Source of the DNA: a virus
Lineage: Duplodnaviria; Heunggongvirae; Uroviricota; Caudoviricetes
DNA: 10,107 nt
Virus record (IMG/VR): IMGVR_UViG_2675903595_000003
Reading direction: 5' to 3' (one strand)
A model generated the notes under the pieces. The model saw nothing but the letters and a program-made list of their open reading frames with translations. It searched no databases and was not told where the DNA came from. A program made the translations under genes and the position numbers. Every line of letters starts with the position of its first letter. The first letter of the stretch is position 1. Below are positions 6,317 to 8,662 of the stretch, piece after piece.

Positions 6317-6338
6317 TAATTATTCTCACTTGTAGGGA

Positions 6339-6399
6339 GGGGCGGGGCAAATCCCTGTGACCTGACGTCTTCCGGACTGCCCGCCCCATCGTTTTTTTA
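6339..6399 (+). other. GC-rich stem (GGGGCGGG / CCCGCCCC) with 34-nt loop and T7 run; candidate terminator and/or cos packaging site
   Basis: GGGGCGGG (6339-6346) pairs with CCCGCCCC (6381-6388), followed by ATCGTTTTTTT. Sits in the HNH-terS intergenic region, where cos lies in HNH-associated cos phages. Function inferred only. Confidence 0.35.
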
Positions 6400-6437
6400 T
6401 ACCCGCGAAAAATGAAATTTAACCAGGAGTGCCGCAT

Positions 6438-6932
6438 ATGGCTGGAACGGCGGGGCGTTCCGGGCGTCGCCCCAAGCCAACGGCGCGCAAGGCGCTGGCC
6501 GGAAACCCCGGCAAGCGAGCCCTGAACAAAGATGAACCTGTTTTTACGCCCATCAAAGGTGTTGAGCCACCAGAGTGGTTCGCTGAAGAAGATCTCCCTC
6601 TCGCCACGATCATGTGGCAACTGACAACCAAAGAACTCTGCGGTCAGGGCCTGCTGTGCGTGACTGACCTGGCGGTACTTGAGCGGTGGTGCGTGGCCTA
6701 TGAGTTCTGGCGACGTGCCGTGAAAAATATTGCCATACAGGGCAACACCATCACCGGTGCAATGGGCGGCAGGGTCAAAAATCCGGAGCTGACCGCCAAA
6801 AAAGAACAGGAGTCCGAGATGAGCAGCACGGGGGCAATGCTCGGACTCGACCCCAGCAGCCGCCAGCGTCTGATTGGCCTGGCGGGGCAGAAGAAAGCCA
6901 CTAACCCGTTTCTGAAAATTATCGAATCATGA
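6438..6932 (+). CDS. phage terminase small subunit (P27 family)
   Basis: [34 protein letters not shown]... matches the P27-family terS N-terminal signature. AGGAG at 6425-6429 precedes ATG 6438 (GTG 6429 is an alternative start). The stop overlaps the terL start (ATGA). Confidence 0.85.
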
Positions 6933-8662
6933 GCCGGAAATCTTACCCCAACGTAAATGCTGCAAATCAGTATGCCCGGGATGTCGTGCGCGGAAAGATT
7001 GTTGCCTGCCAGTTTGTGATTCAGGCCTGCCAGCGCCATCTTGATGACCTGATGGCGGAAAAAAGTAAGTCGTTTCGTTACCGCTTCGACAAGGACCTGG
7101 CTGAACGGGCCGCGAAATTTATTCAGCTGTTGCCGCACACCAAGGGGGAGTGGGCATTCAAACGGATGCCCATCACGCTGGAGCCGTGGCAGCTATTTGT
7201 GATCTGCTGTGCGTTTGGCTGGGTCAATAAAGGCACCCGGTTGCGCCGCTTCCGGGAGGTGTACACCGAAATCCCCCGTAAGAACGGCAAATCAGCAATC
7301 TCTGCCGGTGTTGCCCTGTATTGTTTTGCCTGTGATAACGAGTTTGGCGCGGAAGTGTATTCCGGTGCCACGACAGAGAAACAGGCGTGGGAAGTCTTTC
7401 GCCCGGCGCGACTGATGTGTAAACGCACACCCATGCTGACGGAAGCGTTCGGGATTGAGGTTAACGCCTCAAACATGAACCGTCCGGAGGATGGCGCGCG
7501 GTTTGAACCGCTGATCGGCAACCCAGGTGATGGTTCATCACCCCACTGTGCCGTGGTTGATGAATATCACGAGCATGCCACCGATGCGCTTTATACCACA
7601 ATGCTTACCGGGATGGGGGCGCGACGTCAGCCACTGATGTGGGCCATCACCACCGCCGGGTACAACATTGAGGGGCCGTGCTACGACAAGCGGCGGGAAG
7701 TCATCGAGATGCTCAACGGCTCGGTGCCTAACGATGAACTGTTCGGGATCATCTATACCGTTGATGAAGGTGACGACTGGACCGGCCCGCAGGTGCTGGA
7801 AAAAGCCAATCCAAATATTGGCGTGTCGGTTTATCGCGAATTTTTGTTAAGTCAGCAGCAGCGTGCGAAAAATAACGCCCGTCTGGCAAACGTCTTTAAA
7901 ACAAAACACCTCAATATCTGGGTGTCGGCGCGTTCGGCGTATTTCAACTTGGTGAGCTGGCAGAGCTGCGAGGATAAATCACTGACCCTTGAGCAGTTCG
8001 AGGGGCAGCCGTGCATTCTGGCCTTTGACCTGGCGCGTAAGCTGGATATGAACAGCATGGCGCGACTTTATACCCGCGAGATTGACGGTAAAACGCATTA
8101 CTACAGTGTGGCCCCGCGTTTCTGGGTACCGTATGACACGGTGTACAGCGTCGAGAAAAATGAAGATCGACGGACAGCCGAACGCTTTCAGAAATGGGTG
8201 GAAATGGGCGTTCTGACCGTTACCGATGGTGCGGAGGTGGATTATCGCTACATCCTCGAGGAGGCCAAAGCGGCGAACAAAATCAGCCCGGTCAGTGAGT
8301 CACCCATCGACCCCTTCGGGGCGACCGGGTTGTCACATGACCTTGCTGATGAAGACCTGAATCCCGTCACTATCGTCCAGAACTTCACCAATATGTCCGA
8401 TCCGATGAAAGAGCTGGAAGCAGCGATTGAATCGGGACGTTTTCATCATGACGGCAATCCCATCATGACCTGGTGTATCGGCAACGTGGTCGGCAAAAAC
8501 ATGCCGGGTAACGATGATGTGGTGAAACCCGTCAAAGAGCAGGCGGAAAACAAAATCGATGGTGCAGTTGCGCTGATTATGGCGGTTGGCAGAGCCATGC
8601 TGTACGAGAAAGAAGACACGCTGTCTGACCACATTGAGTCCTACGGGATCCGCTCGCTTTAA
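6929..8662 (+). CDS. phage terminase large subunit (Terminase_1 / HK97-like)
   Basis: 577 aa. Walker A-like ([10 protein letters not shown]), Walker B (CAVVDEYHE), C-terminal nuclease-type region. Coupled to terS. Confidence 0.9.

Follow-up and report, generated by a model that had tools for sequence, protein, structure and literature searches.

What does the 121-bp intergenic gap between the HNH endonuclease gene and the small terminase gene of this prophage do, and is the inverted repeat within it part of the answer? The gap (6317–6437) is bounded by the HNH stop codon, at 6316, and the ATG of terS, at 6438, and a sequence-only reading had seen in it a GC-rich dyad that was taken for a candidate cohesive end site (cos) or terminase recognition site of an HK97-like phage, with the additional thought that it might be a terminator. 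The DNA analysed (the window, 10,107 nt) is the late region of a lambdoid prophage and carries, in order, a DnaB-like helicase gene (40–1572), a RusA gene (1826–2197), a Q-like antiterminator gene (2166–2573), an anti-repressor ORF (2856–3617), a holin gene (5014–5229) followed by Rz/Rz1, and the HNH gene (5966–6316, plus strand; Pfam HNH PF01844, E=1.6e-16; PHROG 144). On the other side of the gap lie terS, which encodes a small terminase of the P27 family (6438–6932, plus strand; Pfam Terminase_4 PF05119, E=3.7e-20), terL, which encodes a large terminase of HK97 type with ATPase and nuclease parts (6929–8662, plus strand; Pfam TerL_ATPase and TerL_nuclease), and, 3′ of terL, the portal gene. 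A Shine-Dalgarno sequence for terS, AGGAG, can be read directly on the plus strand at 6425–6429, 8 nt before the ATG. Runs of N mask 3991–4453 and 5389–5741 of the window, 816 bases in all, which takes in part of the sequence 3′ of the tRNA genes and part of the lysis cassette, and the ORFs that cross them (e.g., 3925–4593, 5229–5861 and 5372–5923) are unreliable in their masked parts.

The two flanks of the gap have different closest relatives. In a megablast search of phage records, the HNH gene has 93.7% nucleotide identity to L34 of phiP27, and most of the gap matches phiP27 along with it, whereas terS and terL together are about 98% identical at the nucleotide level to those of the Shigella phages SfI, SfII, SfIV and SfV (megablast). 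For terS itself the figures are 98–99% identity to the SfII/SfV gene and 48% to phiP27 L35, and TerL matches the crystal structure of the HK97 large terminase (6Z6D, E=5.4e-26). The HNH-gap-terS junction is common, being found in 1293 of 5426 complete E. coli genomes (roughly a quarter), where it is routinely annotated as an HNH endonuclease followed by a P27-family small terminase.

The most direct evidence on the gap comes from SfI, for which run-off sequencing of the virion DNA ends revealed that 10 nt, 5′-TGCCCGCCCC-3′, are missing relative to the prophage, and the authors concluded that the phage packages its DNA by a cos mechanism (PMC3636060). The same cos has been attributed to SfI, SfII, SfIV and SfV in the paper describing SfIV (PMC3851460). 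In the window, TGCCCGCCCC occurs exactly once, on the plus strand at 6378–6387, where it consists of the right arm of the dyad plus TG and would form a top-strand 3′ extension at the right end of the genome. The SfI record ends with ...ctgcccgcccc and starts with gtcgttttttt, and from the G-rich box at 6335 (the G-box, below) to 6437, the last base before the terS ATG, only three differences separate the window from SfI, namely G6347, C6354 and A6388 in place of T, T and G; the HNH gene and its 3′ flank up to 6334 differ from SfI/SfV in being of phiP27 type. The GenBank entry for phiP27 (AJ298298) contains a feature named "cos-site" at 21806–21815, CGCCCGCCCC, which aligns with 6378–6387, and the cohesive end of the group, (T/C)GCCCGCCCC, is thus present between HNH and terS in a form that is one base off the phiP27 feature, its first base being T here and C in phiP27. 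In the Burkholderia phages phi644-2 and phiE125 the ends are 10-base 3′ extensions with the right end 5′-CGCCCGCTTC-3′ (PMC2920897), and this decamer aligns exactly with 6378–6387. Not every deposited record begins at the exact genome end: those of SfV and SfIV have their first base 7 nt before the overhang, at a position corresponding to 6371.

A single copy of the SfI 10-mer, near-identical flanks and an annotated homologue in phiP27 together support the cos interpretation, and we consider it very probable that 6335–6416 serves as cos in a lambdoid prophage of the SfI/SfV/phiP27 kind, with packaging in the manner of HK97. The proposal that cos would be found between HNH and terS therefore held up, as did the suggested comparison with HK97-like cos sites, the gap being alignable with the cohesive ends of SfI, phiP27 and the Burkholderia phages and with the genome end of HK97. 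The site as such is already known, since years ago it was mapped for SfI and entered as a feature for phiP27, and its identification brings no new biology. What it does settle is annotation, in that it assigns an HK97-like cos mechanism, locates the two physical ends of the virion DNA and thereby gives the correct linear map for a type of prophage that about one in four complete E. coli genomes contains.

Loci for a wider comparison were collected through terS relatives of the window, phiP27, Burkholderia and Moraxella types, and 51 diverse cos regions, HK97 included, were aligned. Three blocks are conserved across the 51 regions, and the sequence surrounding them is not: the G-box, the cleavage core, and a right-hand block made up of a T-tract, CCGCGAAA and an A-tract. 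The cleavage core, recognised by pattern match at 6375–6390, reads GAC-TGCCCGCCCC-ATC and conforms to a frame GAC-N10-RTC; its consensus in the alignment is GGAC-YGCCCGCYYC-RTC, and positions A6376, C6377, G6379 and C6381 are invariant or nearly so. Three record junctions coincide with 6387/6388 in the alignment, those of SfI, Burkholderia PhiBP82.1 and HK97; in HK97 this is the point at which ...GACCGCCGCCAAA meets GTTTG. HK97 cuts its cos with TerS, TerL and the HNH protein gp74 to leave 10-nt 3′ overhangs (PMC9410871, PMC11331095). Overhang polarity is not given in the SfI paper (PMC3636060); because a run-off gap of the SfI type, as opposed to an overlap, is what recessed 5′ ends give, we infer nicks at 6387/6388 in the top strand and at 6377/6378 in the bottom strand. 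From the SfI gap, the Burkholderia 3′ extensions and HK97, the ends here would likewise be 10-nt 3′ overhangs. With the nicks so placed, a GTC would directly follow the cut in both strands, a two-fold symmetric arrangement.

Upstream of the core lies the G-box, GGGAGGGGCGGGG (6335–6347, plus strand), which holds the left arm of the dyad at 6339–6346 and is followed by CAAATCCC (6348–6355). The pattern GGGG-N-GGGG, at about −53 to −41 from the nick, is conserved in the Burkholderia, Moraxella and Klebsiella regions and in HK97, usually with (T)CAAA after it; positions 6336, 6341 and 6342 are invariant or nearly so among the 51 regions, and the sequence to the left of the box is not conserved. 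Between G-box and core is a spacer (6356–6374) that varies even among loci whose terS genes are at least 99% identical and that has no significant structure in the window (z = −0.47). In the Burkholderia-type loci L096–L171 the spacer holds, at −38 to −9 and thus just upstream of the overhang, an interrupted palindrome, GTCT-G-GAAGGC-GCT-GCCTTC-G-GGAC, with compensatory changes (GGAGG/CCTCC, AGGGC/GCCCT and AGAAGC/GCTTCT) and z scores of −3 to −4. A spacer hairpin was rejected as a general feature of these cos sites, being absent from both the window and HK97.

The right-hand block, 6392–6416 on the plus strand (+5 to +29 from the top-strand nick), is composed of T7 (6392–6398), ATA, CCGCGAAA (6403–6410, or +16 to +23) and an A-rich run, and it is a candidate TerS-binding region comparable to a cosB. 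Its consensus is TTTT-AY-R-CCGCGAAA-(AA/TT) plus the A-rich run, and T6394–6397, A6399, CCGCGAAA and A6415–6416 are invariant or nearly so across the 51 cos regions. In 80 viral contigs with terS at least 99% identical, the sequence downstream of the nick is almost invariant, with a single T-to-C change, in L015; variation in these contigs is found in the spacer and in the HNH flank instead. The distance from the CCGCGAAA block to the core is fixed within 1 nt, and that to the terS ATG ranges from about 25 to more than 90 nt, which argues that the block belongs to cos and not to the translation signals of terS. Vibrio phage P2 was discarded as a cos comparison: its HNH and terS genes are only 6 nt apart, so its cos must be elsewhere, and the CCGCGAAA-like string found in it is HNH coding sequence.

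In HK97 the minimal site for TerS is a 15-bp segment at +15 to +29 that has an essential C:G pair followed by an A-tract (PMC11331095), and TerS bound there stalls the motor at cos while the HNH protein gp74 stimulates cleavage by TerL (PMC11331095, PMC9410871). The window has CCGCGAAA at +16 to +23 and is A-rich to +29, which is the same offset, and the P27-family TerS most likely binds the block at 6392–6416, to judge from its position and conservation. The two small terminases themselves could not be linked. BLASTP of the window TerS against HK97 gp1 gives E=6.9 and hhalign with a 10-sequence profile gives a probability of 0.1%, sequence and profile searches of the PDB returned no relatives of this TerS, and Pfam shows no link to HK97 gp1; none of these searches detected sequence similarity between the two proteins, and the analogy between the two sites is therefore one of position and conservation. 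A single-sequence AlphaFold2 model of TerS was unusable (pLDDT 39.5). P27-family small terminases do share an invariant basic N-terminal arm, GR..KP...GN.GKR (G9 R10 K13 P14 ... G22 N23 G25 K26 R27). The N-terminus as a whole (residues 1–27, encoded at 6438–6520) is the most conserved part of the protein and resembles an AT-hook-like basic arm, and the N-terminus of the Burkholderia homologue gives a weak match to the H-NS C-terminal domain (E=0.04). It is our speculation that this arm plays the part of the N-terminal arm in HK97; all retrieved loci carry it, so its association with CCGCGAAA offers no contrast. The comparative result yields a prediction of where the small terminases of the P27 family bind.

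The dyad that drew attention to the gap requires a separate account. A repeat finder returns GGGGCGGG (6339–6346) and CCCGCCCC (6380–6387) as 100% complementary arms with 33 nt between them, so that the repeat is real as described, and only its right-hand limit, given as 6388, has to be moved back by one base to 6387. Also correct was the description of what follows: 3′ of the right arm come ATCG and the T7 run at 6392–6398, and 6388–6424 is 70% A+T. The dyad on its own is not beyond chance. Perfect inverted repeats with arms of 8 bp or more and a loop no longer than 60 nt arise in 136 of 2000 dinucleotide shuffles of the gap (6.8%) and are present in 14 of the 167 tiles of 121 nt across the window. 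The folding energy of the hairpin is borderline when set against shuffles: as RNA the 65-nt hairpin has −26.9 kcal/mol (z = −1.88, with 10 of 200 shuffles as good) and as DNA −13.1 kcal/mol (z = −1.81). What is beyond chance instead is that each arm is conserved separately in distant phages. Rfam has no match at the gathering threshold over the gap and none at E≤1 in 6280–6460.

If the arms had to pair, relatives should preserve their pairing, and the 51 aligned cos regions give no sign of this. For the eight proposed pairs, 65.9% of cells can pair, compared with 66.0 ± 1.2 for shuffled partners and 56–65% when the partners are slid by 1–3 columns; the covariation score of the arms is no better than in shuffles; and the duplex energy of G-box and overhang is equal for a region's own arms (−18.29 kcal/mol) and for arms taken across sequences (−18.24 kcal/mol). 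Two close relatives, L025 and L073, have GGGGGAGG as the left arm and an unchanged right arm, and neither in Burkholderia (G-box GGGGGGG, overhang CGCCCGCTTC) nor in HK97 is there complementarity between G-box and overhang. With no signal in the pair count or in the duplex-energy comparison, a hairpin or terminator was rejected as a conserved function, and the dyad itself does not appear to be functional. The idea of the dyad as the recognition unit accordingly has to be given up, in that the cohesive end accounts for its right arm and a separate G-box contains its left arm, and the two do not co-vary. The absence of covariation, the L025 and L073 variants, and the Burkholderia and HK97 sites all indicate two independently conserved elements that are complementary by chance in this lineage, and the complementarity is a by-product of having a G-rich conserved box 40 bp upstream of a C-rich cohesive end.

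These observations bear on three other explanations that could be offered for the gap. One is that the GC-rich hairpin and the U7 run serve, in place of cos or alongside it, to end the lysis/HNH transcript as an intrinsic terminator. An RNA hairpin at 6336–6390, directly 3′ of the HNH stop codon, with the folding energy given above and followed by AUCG and U7, is what would be expected of such an element, and its z score of −1.88 is borderline. A terminator scan makes no call, however, on account of the 33 nt that the 8-bp stem encloses; the U-run starts only after a further four bases; the arms do not covary in the 51 relatives; and the T-run is kept even where the arms cannot pair, as in the Burkholderia phages and HK97. 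Neither the compact stem with a short loop and an immediate U-tract nor the compensatory changes that would mark a Rho-independent terminator were found here. Moreover, a scan found no promoter-like site in the gap, so terS, terL and portal need read-through from the Q-dependent late transcript, and the Q-like antiterminator gene does lie upstream; late transcription that runs through cos into terS fits both facts. The terminator reading thus finds little support in the sequence, and we regard it as unlikely.

An inverted repeat might also act in the DNA itself, as a cruciform or as inverted GGGGCGGG half-sites about 41 bp apart that seat a symmetric complex of terminase and HNH protein. The presence of GGGGCGGG in both orientations in the cos sites of E. 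coli/Shigella phages, phiP27 and some Moraxella loci is in keeping with this, as is a centre-to-centre distance of 41 bp, which is close to four helical turns. Against it stand the lack of covariation, the altered left arm beside an unchanged right arm in L025 and L073, and the non-complementary G-boxes of the Burkholderia phages and HK97, and the DNA hairpin is weak, so that a role of this kind seems rather improbable, even more so than a terminator. Less probable still is that the gap has no packaging role at all, the phage being a headful one or the prophage a dead remnant, for which the masked stretches of the window might be cited. The large terminase is of the HK97 cos type, the cos core and flanks are identical or nearly so to those of SfI, a viable cos phage, the junction is present in the 1293 E. 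coli genomes counted above, and the DNA downstream of the nick is almost invariant in the 80 viral contigs. The system is very unlikely to be a headful one.

With the gap read as a cos site of HK97 type, packaging can be pictured as follows. On concatemeric DNA, the P27-family TerS would bind the T-tract/CCGCGAAA/A-tract block just downstream of the cut, at about 6392–6416, and position the nuclease of the HK97-type TerL, which would be helped by the adjacent HNH protein. The latter is the counterpart of gp74, a cofactor of cos cleavage in HK97 (PMC9410871, PMC11331095). Nicking by TerL and HNH at the two positions given above would produce the 10-nt 3′ cohesive ends, TGCCCGCCCC, and the terS side, where terS itself is the leftmost gene of the virion genome, would then enter the capsid first. 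Packaging would stop at the next cos, so that the HNH gene at the right end and the G-box at 6335–6347 would enter last. After injection, the ends would anneal and be ligated, restoring the sequence as it stands in the prophage.

The site can be set beside those of better-known phages. The cos of SfI, SfII, SfIV and SfV shares with the window its cohesive end, the order HNH-cos-terS and the terminase genes. The phiP27 cos has the G-box, the GAC-N10-GTC frame and a ACACCCGCGAAA block in common with it, together with the HNH gene and the Pfam family of terS, and differs in the first base of the overhang, in the 48% identity of terS and in being unrelated to the right of about 6410. The Burkholderia sites (phiE125, phi1026b and phi644-2) have their 10-base 3′ extensions at the aligned position and share the G-box, the GAC-N10-GTC frame, a CCGCGAAATT block and a P27-family terS (50% identical), but they possess a spacer palindrome with compensatory changes that the window is without, and their G-box is not complementary to the overhang. 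In the case of HK97, likeness extends to a homologous TerL, to a genome with HNH at its right end and terS at its left, to the G-box GGGGGGGGATCAAATC, the GAC-N10-GT frame, the string GT...A.TTT.ACGC after the nick and an aligned GACCGCC, and to a C:G-containing motif followed by an A/T tract within +15 to +29. The differences are a TerS without detectable similarity, the overhang CGCCGCCAAA, a CCCG motif 4 nt further from the nick and an HNH gene that ends about 320 bp before the genome end.

The lambda cos (cosQ-cosN-cosB) follows the same logic, in that its staggered nicks lie between a side bound by TerS, which adjoins the terminase genes, and an upstream element at the end that is packaged last. 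It has 12-nt 5′ overhangs, a TerS of Nu1 type with R sites, an IHF site and no HNH partner. No match to the IHF consensus with at most one mismatch was found in 6317–6437, and the window cos is not of lambda type, having neither a Nu1-type TerS (terS belongs to Terminase_4, the P27 family) nor an IHF site. An HK97-type TerL, an HNH gene (PF01844) 121 bp upstream of terS and a core that can be aligned with HK97 place it, by sequence, in the SfI/SfV/phiP27 group and so in the HK97-type class with its HNH-assisted cleavage and, as would be expected here too, 3′ overhangs.

Some relatives differ on one side of cos only. Phages phi467 (1300–1480 of L275) and vB_EcoS-689R5 (1235–1410 of L276) have the same HNH gene, a G-box and a ACCGCCGCC core, and a right-hand side that is wholly different, without CCGCGAAA and with a T8 run instead. 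The HNH gene of the phi467 type has 86% nucleotide identity to that of the window, whereas its P27-family terS is only 24% identical. The phi467-type phages thus have a third cos variant, which suggests that the TerS-side block co-varies with the subtype of terS, and the retention of HNH gene, G-box and core beside the loss of CCGCGAAA and a divergent terS fits a modular site whose right-hand block is read by TerS and whose G-box and core are read by TerL and HNH. Another contig, IMGVR_UViG_2896595138_000008 (L274, 582–701; compared with 6329–6410 of the window), shows no difference from the window between the HNH 3′ flank and ...CCCGCCCC and is of phiP27 type from GTCAAATT on. The mosaic joint, right after CCCGCCCC, thus coincides exactly with the top-strand nick. 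The window combines the two types the other way round, its HNH side resembling phiP27 and its terS side SfV, and cos appears to be a preferred point of exchange.

The block that remains to be accounted for is the G-box. Its conservation extends from HK97 to the P27-family cos phages that infect Escherichia, Klebsiella, Burkholderia, Moraxella and many hosts not in culture, and where the terS module has been exchanged it is still found with the HNH gene. Tentatively, and as something we would rate a little below an even prospect, the G-box may be a cosQ-like subsite or a docking subsite for HNH/TerL, within a modular HK97-type cos in which the TerS block is exchangeable and the nick is the preferred joint. 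The conserved upstream G-box lies outside what the HK97 papers examine (PMC11331095, PMC9410871), and a three-block cos architecture that is common across Proteobacteria is possibly of use to work on HK97 packaging.

Two further features of the window lie well upstream of cos. Between the Q-like antiterminator gene and the anti-repressor ORF, Rfam returns matches at gathering score to c4-a1b1 (2601–2653), isrK (2614–2690), C4 antisense RNA (2716–2799) and sRNA-Xcc1 (2933–3016), and the segment 2601–3016 looks like a C4/ant immunity module of P1/P7 type embedded in the lambdoid late region. Downstream of Q there are two tRNA genes in tandem, tRNA-Met(CAT) at 3807–3883 and tRNA-Arg(TCT) at 3885–3961; the tRNA genes that SfI has at this map position are those for Asn and Thr instead (PMC3636060).
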